DNA of 64,000 nt from a virus (taxonomy: Duplodnaviria > Caudoviricetes), in IMG/VR virus record IMGVR_UViG_3300033076_000375, positions 122,223-186,222 of that record; one strand, given 5' to 3'. A program made the translations under genes and the position numbers. Within the stretch, counting starts at the first letter, position 1. The number at the start of each line of letters is the position of its first letter. Shown in pieces: positions 57,511 to 64,000 of the stretch. Under the pieces are notes generated by a model. That model saw nothing but the letters and a program-made list of their open reading frames with translations, had not been told where the DNA came from and ran no database searches.

Positions 57511-58586
57511 AGTTTGTCTTTAGTTGTTGTTTGGTCGATTGGTTTAGATAGATTAGTGTTTGTTCCGCATATTCTAGCGCACATTATCATTTTGTTTTCT
57601 CCCCACATGTCAGTCCACATTGTCTGATATGGTTCACTATCAATTATTTCTTTAATAGGATGAAGAAGGGTAGAGATACCATCATAACCGCCGAATCTAT
57701 CTATCATTTTGTTATGCTGTTCTAGAATTTCTTTTCTAATCGGTAGTAATGAAGCCCACTCATCTTGTGATTGATATGGGATAGTTCCTAACCAACAGCA
57801 CCCGTATAGATGCCCTTGCGCATCAATAAAGACTTCTTTTCTTTCTTGTACTACGCACTTGATTTCTGCGTTACGTACAACAGATTTATAGTTGTCGATA
57901 ACCTTTTTGTCAATGAACTTCATTGTGCTATACTGACTTGGTTCTAGGTAATAACTTGTCTCTCTGTTCTTGTTATATACAGGGAACTTATTATCAAGTA
58001 GAAAGCGAGTACTATCTTTCATAGTGAAGTTTTTAAATCCCATTTCTTGTGCGATTCTTTTAGCTTCTTCTACTTGGTGTTCATTGTGCTTAAAGCGAAT
58101 GTATACCCACTCTGCGTTGCCACCGTTGTCAATGAATGACTTGGCATTCTCTAAAATCTTTTCGTAAGATGTACCGATTCTGTAAATCGAATGAGTATCA
58201 GATAACCCGTCTATTGCAAATATAACTACTAGATTCTTCAAGTTGGCTTTTGCAAGGTCTGCCCACCATCGAGTAGAACGTAAGCTACCATTAGTGTGAA
58301 GATGGACATGAATATCTGGGTTATGCTCTTTTGCGTACACTAGCATCTCTTTCAATTCATTAGCCATGAGAGGATCGCCTAATCCACCACATAAACTAAT
58401 ACTCTCAATTTGCTTGAGTACGTCAATAGAAACTATAGTCTGGAATTCTTCTAATGTCCATGTTTTAGCATTGACTAATGGGTTCTCAACTCCACCGTGT
58501 ATGTTTCTTGAGCACATGGGGCAGCTAGCCTGACAGTTACTAGAAATCTCTAAGTGAAGGTGTTTTAGCTCACTATATTTAAACAT
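57507..58586 (-). CDS. Radical SAM protein with C-terminal twitch-like domain
   Basis: CQASCPMC, CGGLGDP, YGCCW, CARICG. Confidence 0.85.
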   Translation of the reverse strand: MFKYSELKHLHLEISSNCQASCPMCSRNIHGGVENPLVNAKTWTLEEFQTIVSIDVLKQIESISLCGGLGDPLMANELKEMLVYAKEHNPDIHVHLHTNGSLRSTRWWADLAKANLKNLVVIFAIDGLSDTHSIYRIGTSYEKILENAKSFIDNGGNAEWVYIRFKHNEHQVEEAKRIAQEMGFKNFTMKDSTRFLLDNKFPVYNKNRETSYYLEPSQYSTMKFIDKKVIDNYKSVVRNAEIKCVVQERKEVFIDAQGHLYGCCWLGTIPYQSQDEWASLLPIRKEILEQHNKMIDRFGGYDGISTLLHPIKEIIDSEPYQTMWTDMWGENKMIMCARICGTNTNLSKPIDQTTTKDKL

Positions 58587-60123
58587 TAGGTCTCCAGTTT
58601 AGTTTCTTGTTGATGTAATCTTGTACGATTTCTTTGTACTTGTCGTCTGCGGTATTTACTTCTGAAATATGAACGTCATACACATCACTGAAGTTGTCGG
58701 TTTGGTATAATGGGAACAGTCTGTCCGATAAGAATGGGTTACCGCCCACTCTTCCTTTGTAACCGTTTTCTTTGTCGTAAAATTCTTTGACGAGATACTC
58801 TGCTTTGTACCAATCTAAAGTATTATGTTTCCATATCACAACATTGTTTCGAGTGCTACCTACTCCCCCACCTCTAATGGATTTGAATACTACATCACCC
58901 TTGTCATCTTTTACGACTTCATATCCCGGATGTTCACGAGCGTCTAACTTTTGCAGTCCATTTGCCAATAATTCTTTTGTAAACTTACTCTGATTTGTTA
59001 GTGTTTCGTCATAGTCACTGACTTCTAATATCCAAGCACTCGCACTTTGTCTTGTCCAATGTGTGTTCAACCAGTTCATAGATTCGTACCATGATTCAAC
59101 AGTCTCACCAGGAATGCCGCAAATCATTTGTATGTTTGCTCTATACCTTCTAGGTGCATGAATGTCAGTGTATCTTTCAAACTCTAACAACCCCTCTTTG
59201 AGTTTATCAGGGTCCATGCCTTTACGTACAAGTTTACCGGCTTCTCTATTGAACGTTTCGATTCCCATTGAATGACCCAAGAAGCCTAGTTTGATATAGT
59301 CATCCCAATGTTCTTTGTGTTTAACAACTAAGTCACCACGAGCAAATCCGCAGAACCAAGTATCAAGACCCAACTCATCAACTACTTCGGCATACTTGCG
59401 AATCTTTTCTGGTCTGTCATTGAATGTCTCATCCATGAAGCGCCAGTTCTTGATTCCCCATTTGTCGTAGCCTGTTTGTAGTTGCTTCTTGAATTCTTCT
59501 TTGCTTACGCTAACATCCTTTGATTGCCCTAGTAACGGAAAATTACAGTAGCTACAACTAAACATACATCCACGTGCCGTTTCAATCTGTGGACATTCAT
59601 ATGGACTCATAAAGTCTCTGGATTCATAATCAATCAGATATGAACTTAACGGGGCAGATGGATAGTGATAGATTCCTCTGATTACTTTCTTCATTCCAAA
59701 GAAAGCAGGGTCAGTCTTTAGTGGTTCACCCAATGTACCAATCAAATGTTTACACAACGATAGTATAGCATTCTCTCCATAACTATCAACCCAATAATCA
59801 ATGTGTTCTGCTTTTGTGACTAGGGCATTGTTGCCACCTACAACTCTTGCGATGTTGGGGTACTCATCTTTTAACCAACTAATGAAGTCATTGAGATAAG
59901 GGCTCCATGGATTTAAGAATGCTGTACCGAAGCAAAACATAACTGTCTTGTTGGTTACCCTTGAACGAACCAATTCTTGTAGTTCTTCTAATTTCCAAAA
60001 TGATGTGTAGTCAATTACTTCCGCATCCCAACCTTCTGTGCGCAAGAATGTAGCAACACGATGGGACCATAGTGCTCGTTCCCATCGTTTACCTGATAAT
60101 GAAAAGAATAGTACGTGGTTCAT
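58579..60123 (-). CDS. B12-binding-domain-like radical SAM protein (paralog of 39408)
   Basis: ARGCMFSCSYC, MDETFND, GIET, ICGIPGET. Confidence 0.8.
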   Translation of the reverse strand: MNHVLFFSLSGKRWERALWSHRVATFLRTEGWDAEVIDYTSFWKLEELQELVRSRVTNKTVMFCFGTAFLNPWSPYLNDFISWLKDEYPNIARVVGGNNALVTKAEHIDYWVDSYGENAILSLCKHLIGTLGEPLKTDPAFFGMKKVIRGIYHYPSAPLSSYLIDYESRDFMSPYECPQIETARGCMFSCSYCNFPLLGQSKDVSVSKEEFKKQLQTGYDKWGIKNWRFMDETFNDRPEKIRKYAEVVDELGLDTWFCGFARGDLVVKHKEHWDDYIKLGFLGHSMGIETFNREAGKLVRKGMDPDKLKEGLLEFERYTDIHAPRRYRANIQMICGIPGETVESWYESMNWLNTHWTRQSASAWILEVSDYDETLTNQSKFTKELLANGLQKLDAREHPGYEVVKDDKGDVVFKSIRGGGVGSTRNNVVIWKHNTLDWYKAEYLVKEFYDKENGYKGRVGGNPFLSDRLFPLYQTDNFSDVYDVHISEVNTADDKYKEIVQDYINKKLNWRPNV

Positions 60124-60728
60124 TTGTATCCTATAATCATAAAGCGTTTGTACTTGGGTAAGTCTAACTCTCCCTTGTACAATACTTTAGACAACTTGGC
60201 TTGAACCACAAAGTCATCTAAACTTTGTGCGATGCGCACATGTTCTGGAATATCAAAGTTATTTGATTGCAACACAATCAATTGGTCATCAAACATATTA
60301 GGCAACCACTTATCGTATTGTTCCTGTGTAATGTGTTCAAAACTTGTGTTGATTACAATGTTTGACACTGGAAAACGATTAGCCATATCGCCAGTCTCTG
60401 CCCTAAATCTACCTTCAGTGTGTTCGATTCTGTTCATTTCTTCTGCAACGTGTTGACACAATGGATCAATGTCTACTGAAACTATATTCTGAATCGGAAG
60501 TTTACTTTGAAACAACATGCTTGCTAAGACACCAACCCAACCACCGTGAATTTCTATAGTCACTGGGTCTTTGTTGACTGCTGGGTGAACAACAAACTCT
60601 AGCATGTCAATTAGCCACTCTTTTGATTTGATTTGTCCTTGCCAGAAGGCATCTAAAGTACGCATAGGATTGTTACTGATGCGAACGGCATTCATCCAAT
60701 GATGTAAATGTTTTGTATCTATTTGCAT
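60120..60728 (-). CDS. Class I SAM methyltransferase-like protein
   Basis: IHGGWVGVLA, VSVDID, VINTSFEH. Confidence 0.65.
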   Translation of the reverse strand: MQIDTKHLHHWMNAVRISNNPMRTLDAFWQGQIKSKEWLIDMLEFVVHPAVNKDPVTIEIHGGWVGVLASMLFQSKLPIQNIVSVDIDPLCQHVAEEMNRIEHTEGRFRAETGDMANRFPVSNIVINTSFEHITQEQYDKWLPNMFDDQLIVLQSNNFDIPEHVRIAQSLDDFVVQAKLSKVLYKGELDLPKYKRFMIIGYK

Positions 60729-61687
60729 TTTGGTATCTTACTATCTGCTGAACTAACGCATGTGGGTGTTGAGCAAACTCTAGGCTCATCGAAAAGTTTG
60801 AACCCACCGTCTAATGTTCCTAATCTTTGGTCATGGCAGCTATAGCTACGTTTGACTTCATTCTCTCTAATTATAACACTTTGATAGCCACTATTGCAAG
60901 TCCAGCCAGTGAATTTATTAAACCCGAAACTGTTGAAACGTTCTGCTTGGTCAATGTGCCATTCTTTGTTATCACTATCAATCAGTTTAACTTGTAGAAG
61001 TTCTTGGTCATGGAACTGTTGATGAAACCCATTACGCATAGCATCGATTTGGTCATCAGTATACCCACTCACAACTTTACTTGCATTTGGGTCACTCTGT
61101 GGCTTTAGTGTTACATTGATGCCTGCGTTGTGCATACGCTCACATCTAGCGTACAATTCGTCAAACTGTTCAGGAACCATAACTTGGTTGACTGTGACAA
61201 ACACATTATGCTCACCCAAGTACTTGCATTTTTCAATGAACTCATCTTCTTTTGCAAACTCTGCATGATAACTGGCAGTGATTGAACGTCTACGTGCCGA
61301 GCGTGTCATCATCAAGTATCTGTCCCACCATTTCAATCCTGGGCTCAAGTTAGTAGTCATGTGAATAGAATCGTTGGACACTTCGTACAACAGTGCCAAC
61401 AACTCTTTGTATGCTGTGGGTTCACCACCACTGAATGACCAATGAAACAAACTAAAGCCATTGTTGTTTGCTTGGTCTTTGATTGATTCGATTGTTTTTA
61501 GGTAAGTGTGAAGTGATTGATAGTCTGGCTTATCTGAATGAGCATACGGCCAGCAGTATGAGCAACTATAGTTACAAAATCTACCCAAGATCCAGCTGAC
61601 AGCAAACAACTTGCGGTCTAACATTGTTTCTTGTCCGAATTTTACTATCTTGTGAAATGGAATTTCTGAGAAGTTTGTGTTATTCAT
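60719..61687 (-). CDS. Radical SAM protein (paralog of 55251)
   Basis: CNYSCSYC, SGGEP, CNSG...SC...VCSTPTC. Confidence 0.88.
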   Translation of the reverse strand: MNNTNFSEIPFHKIVKFGQETMLDRKLFAVSWILGRFCNYSCSYCWPYAHSDKPDYQSLHTYLKTIESIKDQANNNGFSLFHWSFSGGEPTAYKELLALLYEVSNDSIHMTTNLSPGLKWWDRYLMMTRSARRRSITASYHAEFAKEDEFIEKCKYLGEHNVFVTVNQVMVPEQFDELYARCERMHNAGINVTLKPQSDPNASKVVSGYTDDQIDAMRNGFHQQFHDQELLQVKLIDSDNKEWHIDQAERFNSFGFNKFTGWTCNSGYQSVIIRENEVKRSYSCHDQRLGTLDGGFKLFDEPRVCSTPTCVSSADSKIPKCK

Positions 61688-62912
61688 TGATACTACTAAT
61701 TTCGAAAATAGATTCGATTGGTAGTTGGGTACCTATGATTGTTGAAAATCTGTGTAGCATTTTTACGCCAGCATCACTGTAACCTGTCTCAGTTTGATTA
61801 CGCCAAACTCTAGTTTTGGGTTGGTCGTAGAATGGGACGTTGAACTCAAAATCAAATCTATCTACTATATATTGATTTGAATCGACTACCCAAAAATAAT
61901 CAGTAGTGGATATTTTAGCTGCATCCAAGTAAGAATCAGCTTTGATAGCTTTTGGTTCTTTCTCTAGTAACCTGTTGAAATTCTTATCGTTGGTGCCGAT
62001 GAAGAACACTTCGGGCGCTTCATTGTACTGATACTTGATAAAGTTTTGCTGTCCTCGTACGGTACATTGTATCTTCTCTCTGAATTCTTTGCTTTCTTCT
62101 ATGCCCAGAATATCTGTGATTCTATTATCTACCTTATTGAGTAAACTTGTTAGTCTGTTTACTTCTGTGAACAATGAGGATAAATTAAACGTTGTTTCGT
62201 TGAAGACTGCCTTCAAGTGGTCGCTATCTTTGATTTTGGTAAAGTCACCGTTGTGAACCATTGACATGTAGTAGCCCATACGAGCACCATAGATTGACCA
62301 CAACCCATTTGTTACATCACCACCGACATGCATCCAGCGCCATAGTCTCTCATAGTTCTTCCAGTTTATCTCAGATGAGTTGGTGACGATTTGATTGTTT
62401 TCCATGCACAACTTTGTACCTTCACGGAACCCAGCTTTGAACGCTTGTAAAGGACTAGCTGTAATGTCAGTGATTGACCCTACAAAGTTAAGCTCCAAAT
62501 AGTTCTTAAAGTCAAAGTCTACACTAGCCCCATCGGGTGCATTTTCATGGGTTCGCATCGACAAAATCTTCTCGACAGGCCAGACTTTGATGCTACCATT
62601 CCCGTAGCAGTTTCCGTTGACCGGGTTAAACGCACTATAACTTAAAACAGTAGTGCTCAAATCAACCGAATCAAGTAAGTTAAAAGTCTTAGTGAAAAAT
62701 TCAGGCTTGACAAAATTATCCCCATCGACTATAATCACGTTAGAAGTTTTAGAAAGTTTAGCACACTCTTTGTGTGCGGTGTCTGAACCCTTTACTCCAT
62801 GCACTCTTTGAGCAGTGGGGCAAAGAGACAAAAGGTGTTGATAGTTTTCTTCACAGTTCGGTTCATCGTAACTAAGAAAAATTACTGAATAGTCATTTGG
62901 GTTAAATATCAT
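61680..62912 (-). CDS. Glycosyltransferase-like protein (GT-A/DxD type)
   Basis: IFLSYDEPN, VHGVKGSDTAHK, IVDGDN; a degenerate second copy near the C-terminus (FWVVDS). Confidence 0.55.
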   Translation of the reverse strand: MIFNPNDYSVIFLSYDEPNCEENYQHLLSLCPTAQRVHGVKGSDTAHKECAKLSKTSNVIIVDGDNFVKPEFFTKTFNLLDSVDLSTTVLSYSAFNPVNGNCYGNGSIKVWPVEKILSMRTHENAPDGASVDFDFKNYLELNFVGSITDITASPLQAFKAGFREGTKLCMENNQIVTNSSEINWKNYERLWRWMHVGGDVTNGLWSIYGARMGYYMSMVHNGDFTKIKDSDHLKAVFNETTFNLSSLFTEVNRLTSLLNKVDNRITDILGIEESKEFREKIQCTVRGQQNFIKYQYNEAPEVFFIGTNDKNFNRLLEKEPKAIKADSYLDAAKISTTDYFWVVDSNQYIVDRFDFEFNVPFYDQPKTRVWRNQTETGYSDAGVKMLHRFSTIIGTQLPIESIFEISSINE

Positions 62913-62917
62913 AAAGA

Positions 62918-62924
62918 TATTTAG
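62918..62924 (-). promoter_or_regulatory. Late promoter motif CTAAATA (minus strand)
   Basis: TATTTAG 5 nt upstream of the minus-strand ATG at 62912. Confidence 0.55.
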
Positions 62925-62933
62925 CAACAAAGG

Positions 62934-62962
62934 TTGACAGTAAATGAGAAACCTGCTATACT
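62934..62962 (+). promoter_or_regulatory. Sigma70-type promoter P1
   Basis: TTGACA-17 nt-TATACT with extended -10 TG. Confidence 0.85.
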
Positions 62963-63032
62963 ATCTTCAACGTTGAGAAATCAACAAGAAACAGAGGTTG
63001 TGTGTTTCGGGCAACAAAGTTTGAAAAAGTTG

Positions 63033-63061
63033 TTGACAACTAATCAAATAGGTGCTACAAT
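63033..63061 (+). promoter_or_regulatory. Sigma70-type promoter P2
   Basis: TTGACA-17 nt-TACAAT with extended -10 TG. Confidence 0.85.
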
Positions 63062-63123
63062 ACATACATCTTAAACAAATTGAAAGAAAAAACGCCGTAA
63101 AAAGCACAATTTTTTAACCAGGA

Positions 63124-63130
63124 CTAAATA
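63124..63130 (+). promoter_or_regulatory. Late promoter motif CTAAATA
   Basis: GACTAAATA 7 nt upstream of the ATG at 63138. Confidence 0.55.
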
Positions 63131-63137
63131 GATTACT

Positions 63138-63305
63138 ATGAAAAATTTTAACTGTCATTCGCTAACGAACATAAGCATGTGGTCAACATTACCACAAGCT
63201 CAAGTGTTGGCCTTTGCAGGGAAAGCACAACCTAGTATTCGCGGCTCAGAGTATAATGATCCAAGAACACCAGGGAGTTTCATAGAAGGAGACGGTTACG
63301 CATAA
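63138..63305 (+). CDS. Putative attenuator leader peptide (55 aa)
   Basis: MKNFNCHSLTNISMWSTLPQAQVLAFAGKAQPSIRGSEYNDPRTPGSFIEGDGYA; 3' end overlaps the antiterminator arm. Confidence 0.6.
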   Translation: MKNFNCHSLTNISMWSTLPQAQVLAFAGKAQPSIRGSEYNDPRTPGSFIEGDGYA

Positions 63306-63341
63306 AGTGTGATGTCTTAAAAGAATCTAAGAAACCCCTGG
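63270..63341 (+). promoter_or_regulatory. Putative antiterminator hairpin
   Basis: CCAGGG-A-GTTTC-A-TAGA (63270-63286) pairs with TCTA-A-GAAAC-CCCTGG (63326-63341), 15 bp; the inner hairpin 63289-63318 has the TAA in its loop. Confidence 0.65.
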
Positions 63342-63371
63342 GAAACTAAAAAGTCTCAGGGGTTTTGTTTT
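63331..63371 (+). terminator. Intrinsic terminator
   Basis: GAAACCCCTGGGA...TCTCAGGGGTTTT stem followed by TTTTGTTTT. Confidence 0.8.
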
Positions 63372-63392
63372 GTAACAAAGGAGTTTGAAAGA

Positions 63393-63542
63393 TTGAACGA
63401 AACATTAGAAACGAAAACTTCCGACAAACGAGATTGGTATAAAGACAATCAGTTATCGGATAAAGAATTTAAACAAATGATTGAGGAAAAACTCAATCGT
63501 GTGAAAATTTATAGCAGGATTCATCCTGTTCGTAAGAAGTAA
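63393..63542 (+). CDS. Small charged hypothetical protein (49 aa)
   Basis: AAGGAG SD at 63378-63383, TTG start; MNETLETKTSDKRDWYKDNQLSDKEFKQMIEEKLNRVKIYSRIHPVRKK. Confidence 0.5.
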   Translation: MNETLETKTSDKRDWYKDNQLSDKEFKQMIEEKLNRVKIYSRIHPVRKK

Positions 63543-63758
63543 CACAAGTGTTAGAATGTAGTAACGTGGACTACGCAACACACTATAATAAGTTGCAAAC
63601 GGGCGGACTGTAGGATGAAGCTACTTTTGAGTAGTGAAAAATTACAGGCTAGGGTATAGCTCTAGCATAGCATCACAAGATGCTATTCACTAGTAATACT
63701 AGGATTAACATTACACTTCCCTTCTGACGGGGACTGCCTAGATTACTACTGAATAGCA
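63543..63758 (+). ncRNA. Candidate structured non-coding RNA(s) upstream of the tRNA array
   Basis: Chain of abutting hairpins plus a 21-bp interrupted stem at 63681-63758; no listed ORF. Confidence 0.4.
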
Positions 63759-63765
63759 AATTTGT

Positions 63766-63841
63766 TGGGGTATAGCCTAGCGGCCTAAGGCAACGGTCTT
63801 TGAAATCGTCATCATCAGTTCGAATCTGATTACCCCTGCCA
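63766..63841 (+). tRNA. trnQ: tRNA-Gln (TTG)
   Basis: Cloverleaf; anticodon arm ACGGT-CTTTGAA-ATCGT; T arm ATCAG-TTCGAAT-CTGAT; encoded CCA. Confidence 0.93.
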
Positions 63842-63850
63842 ACAATTTAT

Positions 63851-63926
63851 ACTCTGTTCGTCTATCGGTTTAGGACAGTGGCCTTTCAAGTCGCAAAGAC
63901 GGGTTCGATTCCCGTACAGAGTACCA
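63851..63926 (+). tRNA. trnE: tRNA-Glu (TTC)
   Basis: ACTCTGT/ACAGAGT acceptor stem; GTGGC-CTTTCAA-GTCGC; ACGGG-TTCGATT-CCCGT; CCA. Confidence 0.93.
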
Positions 63927-63933
63927 ATTATAT

Positions 63934-64000
63934 GCGTGGTTAGTTTAACGGTAAAATCAAACGTTGCCAACGTTTAGTCAAGGGTTCGACTCCCTTACCC
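63934..64000 (+). tRNA. trnG: tRNA-Gly (GCC), truncated by the window end
   Basis: AAACG-TTGCCAA-CGTTT anticodon arm; AAGGG-TTCGACT-CCCTT T arm. Confidence 0.88.

Follow-up and report, generated by a model that had tools for sequence, protein, structure and literature searches.

Leader-peptide attenuators such as trpL, hisL, leuL, thrL, pheL and the ilv leaders belong to amino-acid biosynthesis operons. In the T-box, one specific uncharged tRNA is bound directly and no translation is needed. T4-like and other large phages carry clusters of tRNA genes; why large phages keep near-complete tRNA sets is still debated, and to our knowledge little has been established about how phages control these genes.

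General translation-stress attenuators have been described in bacteria. In the portions of the reports available to us, toiL, which precedes topAI-yjhQ in E. coli (PMC12121999), and the mycobacterial whiB7 uORF (bioRxiv 10.1101/2023.06.02.543512) are small uORFs that report stalling of more than one cause and free downstream transcription, which is the behavior we propose for the phage leader described here. The triggers given in those portions are antibiotics or one amino acid (alanine), and selection for full amino-acid coverage is not mentioned there; these bacterial uORFs control either a toxin-antitoxin pair or a transcription factor, whereas the target of the phage leader would be a viral tRNA array. 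As far as these portions go, the two uORFs appear to be the nearest functional analogues of the phage leader.

The leader lies near the end of an IMG/VR contig of 186 kb with 40% G+C, which is estimated to hold about half of a genome. The stretch of DNA analyzed here, called the window, is the final 64 kb of this contig (64,000 nucleotides), and the leader element lies 860 nt from the contig end. The element is compact, about 300 nt long, with bacterial consensus promoter and terminator signals, and contains the following parts:

62934-62962, plus strand: sigma-70-type promoter P1, TTGACA, 17 nt and TATACT with a TG extension, 11/12 consensus matches
63033-63061, plus strand: sigma-70-type promoter P2, TTGACA, 17 nt and TACAAT with a TG extension, 11/12 consensus matches
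63116-63137, plus strand: conserved 5' UTR block AACCAGGACTAAATA and a spacer, with an SD-like AGGA at 63120-63123
63118-63122 (CCAGG) and 63129-63134 (TAGATT), plus strand: strand S1, which can pair with 63324-63341
63138-63305, plus strand: leader ORF, ATG to TAA, 55 codons
63141-63269, plus strand: putative sensor window, codons 2-44, with each amino acid at least once ahead of the antiterminator arm
63270-63287, plus strand: antiterminator 5' strand S2, CCAGGG A GTTTC ATAGAA, codons 45-50 (PGSFIE)
63289-63318, plus strand: stop-codon hairpin taken from the predicted fold, with the TAA (63303-63305) in its loop
63324-63341, plus strand: switch strand X, with S2, S1 or (through 63334-63341) the terminator 3' arm as possible partners
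63334-63373, plus strand: terminator-like hairpin, a 10-bp stem (63334-63343 with 63354-63363) and a 10-nt loop, U-rich from 63363

As in trpL-type leaders, a short translated ORF is followed by an intrinsic terminator, and an alternative helix joins the terminator 5' arm to the end of the ORF; which helix forms is proposed to depend on where the ribosome stands. Unlike those leaders, which have a run of codons for one amino acid and biosynthetic enzymes downstream, the phage leader has no run at all, keeps all 20 amino acids and is followed by phage tRNAs; the phage element also has extra pairing partners in the 5' UTR and start region, and many relatives have a promoter after the terminator. 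When we went through the features that define an attenuator, we found an ORF that is translated as judged by its sequence evolution, a predicted terminator and an overlapping antiterminator, and no cluster of regulatory codons. The element shares with the T-box the coupling of charged-tRNA supply to a choice between antiterminator and terminator, but it would read all amino acids through the ribosome, and Rfam gave no T-box match. As in the tRNA clusters of T4-like phages, the array lies beside small ORFs and structured RNA.

Homologues were collected at the protein and the nucleotide level. A protein search returned 20 relatives (52-58 aa) and a profile search 158, while a search with the exact 5' UTR motif led to more than 119 viral contigs, a far richer yield than that of the other viral searches; those with a divergent alignment or a single divergent protein found few extra loci. 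Proteins and loci pooled gave 207 distinct leader peptides of 43-59 aa. The family comprises two types, a long one of 51-59 aa, to which the leader in the window belongs, and a short one of 43-48 aa.

Judged by how it changes between relatives, the leader ORF evolves as a translated sequence. In nucleotide alignments, indels in the ORF up to the GSFIEG codons were multiples of three and those in the tail and flank were not; the entropies at the three codon positions were 0.52, 0.45 and 0.78, the third being the most variable, and the median pairwise dN/dS of 27 coding sequences was about 0.4. A non-coding RNA with an accidental ORF was rejected on the grounds of the in-frame indels and the codon-position pattern. 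The peptide itself is also constrained, with pN/pS of about 0.3-0.7, and 0.27-0.41 in the SIRG and N-terminal blocks. SIRG, within SIRGS at codons 33-37 (63234-63248, plus strand), is the most conserved peptide motif and is kept in both leader types, its nucleotides nearly frozen (AGT ATT CGC), and the N-terminus is conserved as well; the constraint on SIRG and the N-terminus exceeds what coverage alone explains. SIRG loosely resembles GIRAGP, the arrest motif of SecM, and might cause either the ribosome or the polymerase to pause. Conservation is lowest in the C-terminal tail, whose frame differs between relatives. No Pfam or PHROGs family was found for the peptide. AlphaFold2, run on the peptide with an alignment of 24 sequences, returned a mean pLDDT of 55, a pTM of 0.11 and no secondary structure; the peptide is not predicted to fold, which is weak evidence for so short a peptide and so shallow an alignment.

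The original prediction started from the composition of this one leader, and its counts were reproduced exactly. All 20 amino acids appear by codon 41, with first occurrences at M1, K2, N3, F4, C6, H7, S8, L9, T10, I12, W15, P19, Q20, A21, V23, G28, R35, E38, Y39 and D41, and the 55 codons include 39 different triplets, among them TCG, ACG, CTA, ATA, AGA, CGC, GGG, GTG and TTG. Against the background, the diversity of amino acids does stand out: all 20 within 41 codons occurred in 0.44% of windows inside long ORFs of the record, in 0.38% of stop-free windows in six frames and in about 1% of stop-free random sequence matched in base composition. Across the full 186 kb of the record there are 609 ORFs of 41-100 codons, and the leader is the only one of them that reaches it. 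At least 39 distinct codons in 55 were found in 0.12% of genic windows and in 8% of random sequence, and the number predicted from the peptide and the codon usage of the record was 35.3 ± 2.2 (p = 0.07 for 39). The amino-acid set of the leader is unusual by itself and its codon count mildly so; the decisive support comes from the homologues and not from this single sequence.

The homologous leaders bore out the expectation that full coverage is kept. With Met1 excluded, 193/207 distinct peptides contained all 20 amino acids and the other 14 each lacked exactly one; in the profile-search set, 114/118 full-length proteins had all 20. Random draws from the composition of the leader family itself gave all 20 in 3.9%. 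As a null model, evolution was simulated on the maximum-likelihood tree of the family under LG, starting from a root consensus that has all 20 amino acids, with column-specific rates tuned to the real conservation of each column so that identity to the consensus was 0.63 in both real and simulated sets. In 300 such runs, 30 ± 28 of the 207 tips had full coverage, with a maximum of 111, compared with the 193 observed. The control family ORF2, which is matched in length and comes from the same phages, contained 15-18 distinct amino acids and never 20.

The rare residues showed how coverage is maintained. Cys, His and Trp are each present in exactly one copy in 94-96% of the members, which is strongly under-dispersed, and yet they occupy many alignment columns (9 for Trp, 13 for Cys and 10 for His). 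When the usual column was lost, a copy was found elsewhere in 96% (Trp), 89% (Cys) and 100% (His) of the members, and when it was kept, a second copy was present in just 4-6%. Parsimony required 5-15 independent changes per residue. One peptide (P0082) has one Trp at the old site and another at the new one, the pattern to be expected if gain precedes loss. The leader in the window is itself a case of such a move: its His is at residue 7, mostly Gln in relatives, and is missing from residue 11, the usual position. Coverage is, in addition, complete ahead of the switch: with Met1 excluded it was complete upstream of the PGSF codons in 153/158 long-type members, while the C-terminal segment of equal length in these peptides held 16-19 amino acids, and in 37/47 short-type members all 20 occurred before the last five codons. 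Inheritance by chance is excluded by the family-wide retention, by the simulations that never reach it and by the relocation of the single-copy residues, and we conclude from these comparisons of sequences that the all-20 content of the leader family is selected and not due to chance. Single-copy residues that move without vanishing form an evolutionary signature that could be used to seek similar sensors elsewhere.

The original prediction spoke of a pan-codon sensor, and this idea survived for amino acids and only in part for codons. About 37 of the 61 codons are used, AAG is missing from 77% of the members and CAG from 38%; with coverage this incomplete and p = 0.07 for the count in the window, the strict pan-codon reading was dropped. 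Codon diversity was above expectation in 96% of the members, with a mean z of +1.8. Both codon boxes of Ser and of Leu are present in 98-100% of the members, and for Arg, CGN is present in 99% and AGR in 86%.

The leader ORF ends within an RNA that can fold in two competing ways. The original prediction placed the antiterminator arm at codon 45, and the stretch complementary to the terminator 5' arm does begin at that codon (CCA, 63270). From there, S2 pairs with 63325-63341, which shares 8 of the 10 nt of the terminator 5' arm. The terminator stem is G+C-rich; a simple terminator scan missed this hairpin, its loop limit being 8 nt. S2:X together with the inner stop-codon hairpin folds at −31.4 kcal/mol (z = −6.7) and the terminator alone at −19.2, and when both are possible the minimum-energy fold has S2:X and not the terminator.

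Pairing was followed through 48 long-type and 53 short-type loci:

Terminator, long type, 48 loci: 99.2% of cells paired, three pairs changed on both sides
S2:X, long type, 48 loci: 87.7% paired (51-63% when slid by one), mostly invariant
Stop-codon hairpin, 48 loci: 73.3% paired, changes on both sides at all five pairs
Terminator, short type, 53 loci: 96.4% paired, one pair C-G in 32 with A-U in 13
Antiterminator, short type, with the stop codon inside it, 53 loci: 89.2% paired, one pair A-U in 25, G-C in 22 and G-U in 4

The covariation score of the stop-codon hairpin was reached by 0/500 shuffles. For the long-type antiterminator, a single compensatory pair was found (U-A 38, C-G 4, U-G 2), and one lineage adds to it: in L043, a complete 364-kb relative, X reads CCTCTGG, S2 reads CCAGAG (with Gly46 changed to Glu), the terminator 3' arm reads CCAGAGG and the 5' UTR reads TCAGAG, so that the changes match on four strands. 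Direct covariation of this helix is thin, one pair and one lineage, because the helix is mostly invariant. Synonymous divergence was 0.12 in S2 versus 0.27-0.66 in the other segments of the ORF, which shows a constraint at the RNA level on top of coding. On these sequences, with some covariation, the alternative between antiterminator and terminator is real, and the expected antiterminator arm near the end of the ORF is supported by the competition of S2:X with the terminator, by covariation and by the matching changes in L043. Long-type leaders have their stop codon 15 nt past the end of S2, so a terminating ribosome would leave part of S2 uncovered, a less classical layout than that of the short type. 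Some relatives have just three U after the hairpin. An Rfam search of 60000-64000 at E <= 1 returned tRNAs, plus two chance-level matches elsewhere in that region, and nothing for the element.

The 5' UTR would take part in the same switch. The TTGACA of P2 is invariant across the aligned related loci and the TTGACA block of P1 is kept in them; a transcript from P2 is expected from its sequence to start at about 63068, which would place the conserved 5' UTR inside the RNA. The 5' UTR block was invariant in 48/48 long-type and 53/53 short-type loci, partly by construction since added loci were fetched with the exact motif itself; independently fetched loci also conserve it, and L043 and L171 have variants. 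The pair 63131/63327 between S1 and X covaries (A-U 31, G-C 10, G-U 5, other 2). The start region, CUAUGAAA at 63136-63143, can pair with its complement UUUCAUAG within S2; both strands are invariant and so show no covariation. In the minimum-energy fold of the full-length leader, the S1:X and start-region:S2 pairings stand alongside the terminator, an arrangement reminiscent of the trp leader in its 1:2 / 3:4 state. The 5' UTR block also includes the motif GACTAAATA, at 63122-63130 on the plus strand and 7 nt upstream of the leader ATG. Three large ORFs of the record (at about 1439, 10222 and 17548, plus strand) have this motif as well, 16-18 nt ahead of their start codons. It recalls the CTAAATA and TATAAATA motifs of T4-like phages. 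From this placement it is a candidate late-type promoter, and the 5' UTR block may double as one; such a promoter alone is probably not the whole explanation of the block, because one of its positions covaries with X.

The genes on the two sides of the element are as follows:

58579-60123 and 60719-61687, minus strand: two radical SAM genes
63393-63542, plus strand: ORF2, 49 codons, TTG start, with AAAGGAG 9 nt upstream
63766-63841, plus strand: tRNA-Gln(UUG)
63851-63926, plus strand: tRNA-Glu(UUC)
63934-64000, plus strand: a third tRNA, truncated where the contig stops

A same-strand tRNA, most often tRNA-Gln(UUG), lies within 1.2 kb of the leader in 68/72 loci with enough sequence. The 29 loci with 4 kb downstream contain 7-19 tRNAs, all on the same strand, and in the complete 364-kb relative 45 tRNAs for all 20 amino acids form one 15-kb array right after the leader. 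Searches of phage GenBank records matched the tRNAs alone. In this 45-tRNA array (L166, G001:C1:225400-241800), ARAGORN gives one tRNA with a four-base anticodon (TTTC) and no assigned identity, which could be frameshift-suppressor-like or aberrant. The contig ends no more than 1.2 kb past the leader in 45/117 loci, as it does in the window; an apparent tendency of assemblies to break where these arrays begin suggests repeats or high strain variation there.

Between terminator and tRNAs lies ORF2, a conserved family of 47-56 aa with no Pfam or PHROGs match, whose homologues are found downstream of the leader in 44/100 loci. It is followed at 63543-63765 (plus strand) by about 220 nt without a called gene before tRNA-Gln, a stretch that contains the conserved block AAACGGGCGGAC and has no Rfam match; a structured RNA or an element for tRNA processing may be located there. 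In L014-L017 the AAACGGGCGGAC stretch comes directly after the terminator, without ORF2. A near-consensus sigma-70 promoter, TTGACA-N17-TAGAAT or TACAAT, is located 20-40 nt past the terminator in 67/104 related loci (64%), for example at about 3250-3290 in L002, suggesting that the tRNA side is self-driven there and that the element is not its sole gate. In many relatives the first codons of ORF2 overlap this consensus promoter. The window has a degenerate remnant alone at 63385-63411 (TTGAAA, a 15-nt spacer, TAGAAA), and its closest relative likewise lacks the promoter; with the promoter absent, ORF2 and the first tRNAs of the window appear more dependent on read-through. On the other side, a divergent cluster on the minus strand (58579-62930) encodes the two radical SAM proteins (514 and 322 aa) and proteins of 202 and 416 aa for which no known families were found. 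Homologues of these upstream genes were present in 25-39% of the 89 loci with at least 2.5 kb of upstream sequence.

The selection for all 20 amino acids, together with the overlap of the end of the ORF with the switch beside the terminator, suggests that the leader reads slow decoding of any amino acid. From sequence, the leader ORF is probably a ribosome-coupled transcription attenuator that heads the tRNA array and senses any amino acid. Strong early-type promoters (62934-63061) would produce the leader transcript. With prompt decoding, the lead ribosome would be on codons 45-55, over S2, while the polymerase makes 63324-63373; with S2 occupied, X would pair with 63354-63363 and transcription would stop at the U tract. 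If the ribosome were held at any codon of the sensor window, for instance because a tRNA is scarce, uncharged or damaged or because translation is impaired in general, S2 would be free, the more stable S2:X helix would form in place of the terminator, and transcription would continue through ORF2 to the tRNA genes. Further partners would be the 5' UTR strand and the start region, which may set the state of the RNA when no ribosome is loaded. The stalling, the read-through, the direction of the switch, its physiological trigger and a link to anticodon nucleases are parts of this scheme that we infer. The original prediction of a generic alarm thus keeps its support at the amino-acid level, where a selected all-20 window precedes the switch, but not in full at the level of codons, whose coverage is incomplete.

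The same features could be read in other ways. If the leader were a stand-alone early gene with a product active in trans, either the 55-aa peptide or the terminated RNA (about 300 nt), read-through into the tRNA array would be incidental; the strong promoter after the terminator in 64% of the relatives does make the leader look like a separate unit, and the peptide is conserved beyond coverage in SIRG and the N-terminus. Leader peptides and attenuator RNAs with such activity are known (PMC7298713, PMC7968998), and it is described for the trp attenuator RNA and peptide of Sinorhizobium. A peptide acting in trans, however, has no reason to keep every amino acid while its single Trp, Cys and His hop, and both the completion of coverage before S2 and the overlap of the end of the ORF with a helix that competes with the terminator would be left unexplained; with a peptide that has no predicted fold and is linked to the tRNA array in 68/72 loci, we regard this explanation as unlikely, while giving it some weight. 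It is also conceivable, although rather improbable in our view, that sensing of all amino acids is real and the output is something other than termination, namely translation of the leader itself, RNA stability or processing, or translation of ORF2. The covarying pairing of the 5' UTR strand with X, the invariant complementarity of CUAUGAAA and UUUCAUAG, the covarying hairpin around the stop codon and the weak U tract of some relatives would all suit such an output. Yet a hairpin and U tract make a textbook intrinsic terminator in most loci, with 96-99% of cells paired, the overlap of X with 8/10 nt of the terminator 5' arm is the arrangement of an attenuator, and not every member of the family has ORF2, whereas all of them have the switch.

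Two further explanations concern the peptide alone. The radical SAM genes close upstream, and in one relative (L030) a radical SAM/SPASM gene that immediately precedes the peptide in the same orientation, bring to mind a RiPP-like precursor modified by these neighboring enzymes. We consider this very improbable and rejected it, as there is no constant linkage to a maturase and the upstream genes are on the opposite strand, with homologues in just 25-39% of the 89 loci; moreover, conservation is weakest in the C-terminal tail, which shifts frame between relatives, and a precursor needs no full set of 20 residues. That the ORF arose by chance or encodes just another small phage protein, its composition being meaningless, could be argued from the 3/412 ORFs of 41-60 codons in the record that hold all 20 amino acids, and from a codon count that 8% of random sequence reaches. 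This last explanation is extremely improbable given the retention in 193/207 peptides, the calibrated simulations that fall short of it, the relocating residues and the matched ORF2 control, which shows nothing similar; nor does a sequence-similarity search introduce a compositional bias into the set of homologues.

What is new in the phage leader is that complete coverage replaces the run of codons for one amino acid. In the open-access literature we found no leader that covers all amino acids and no leader peptide or attenuator that heads a phage tRNA array, an absence that is not proof. The ribosome-coupled attenuator proposed here offers a regulatory logic in which more tRNA is made when the decoding of anything slows. 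If it is true, attenuation extends from one amino acid to all of them and this would be the first such attenuator; the element might also serve as a general reporter of translation stress. For the large freshwater phages that carry it, we lean slightly towards the leader being a universal decoding gauge that tunes transcription into their own near-complete tRNA set. If so, it would provide homeostatic feedback on the viral tRNA supply and would respond as well when host tRNAs are depleted, uncharged or cut by anticodon nucleases.
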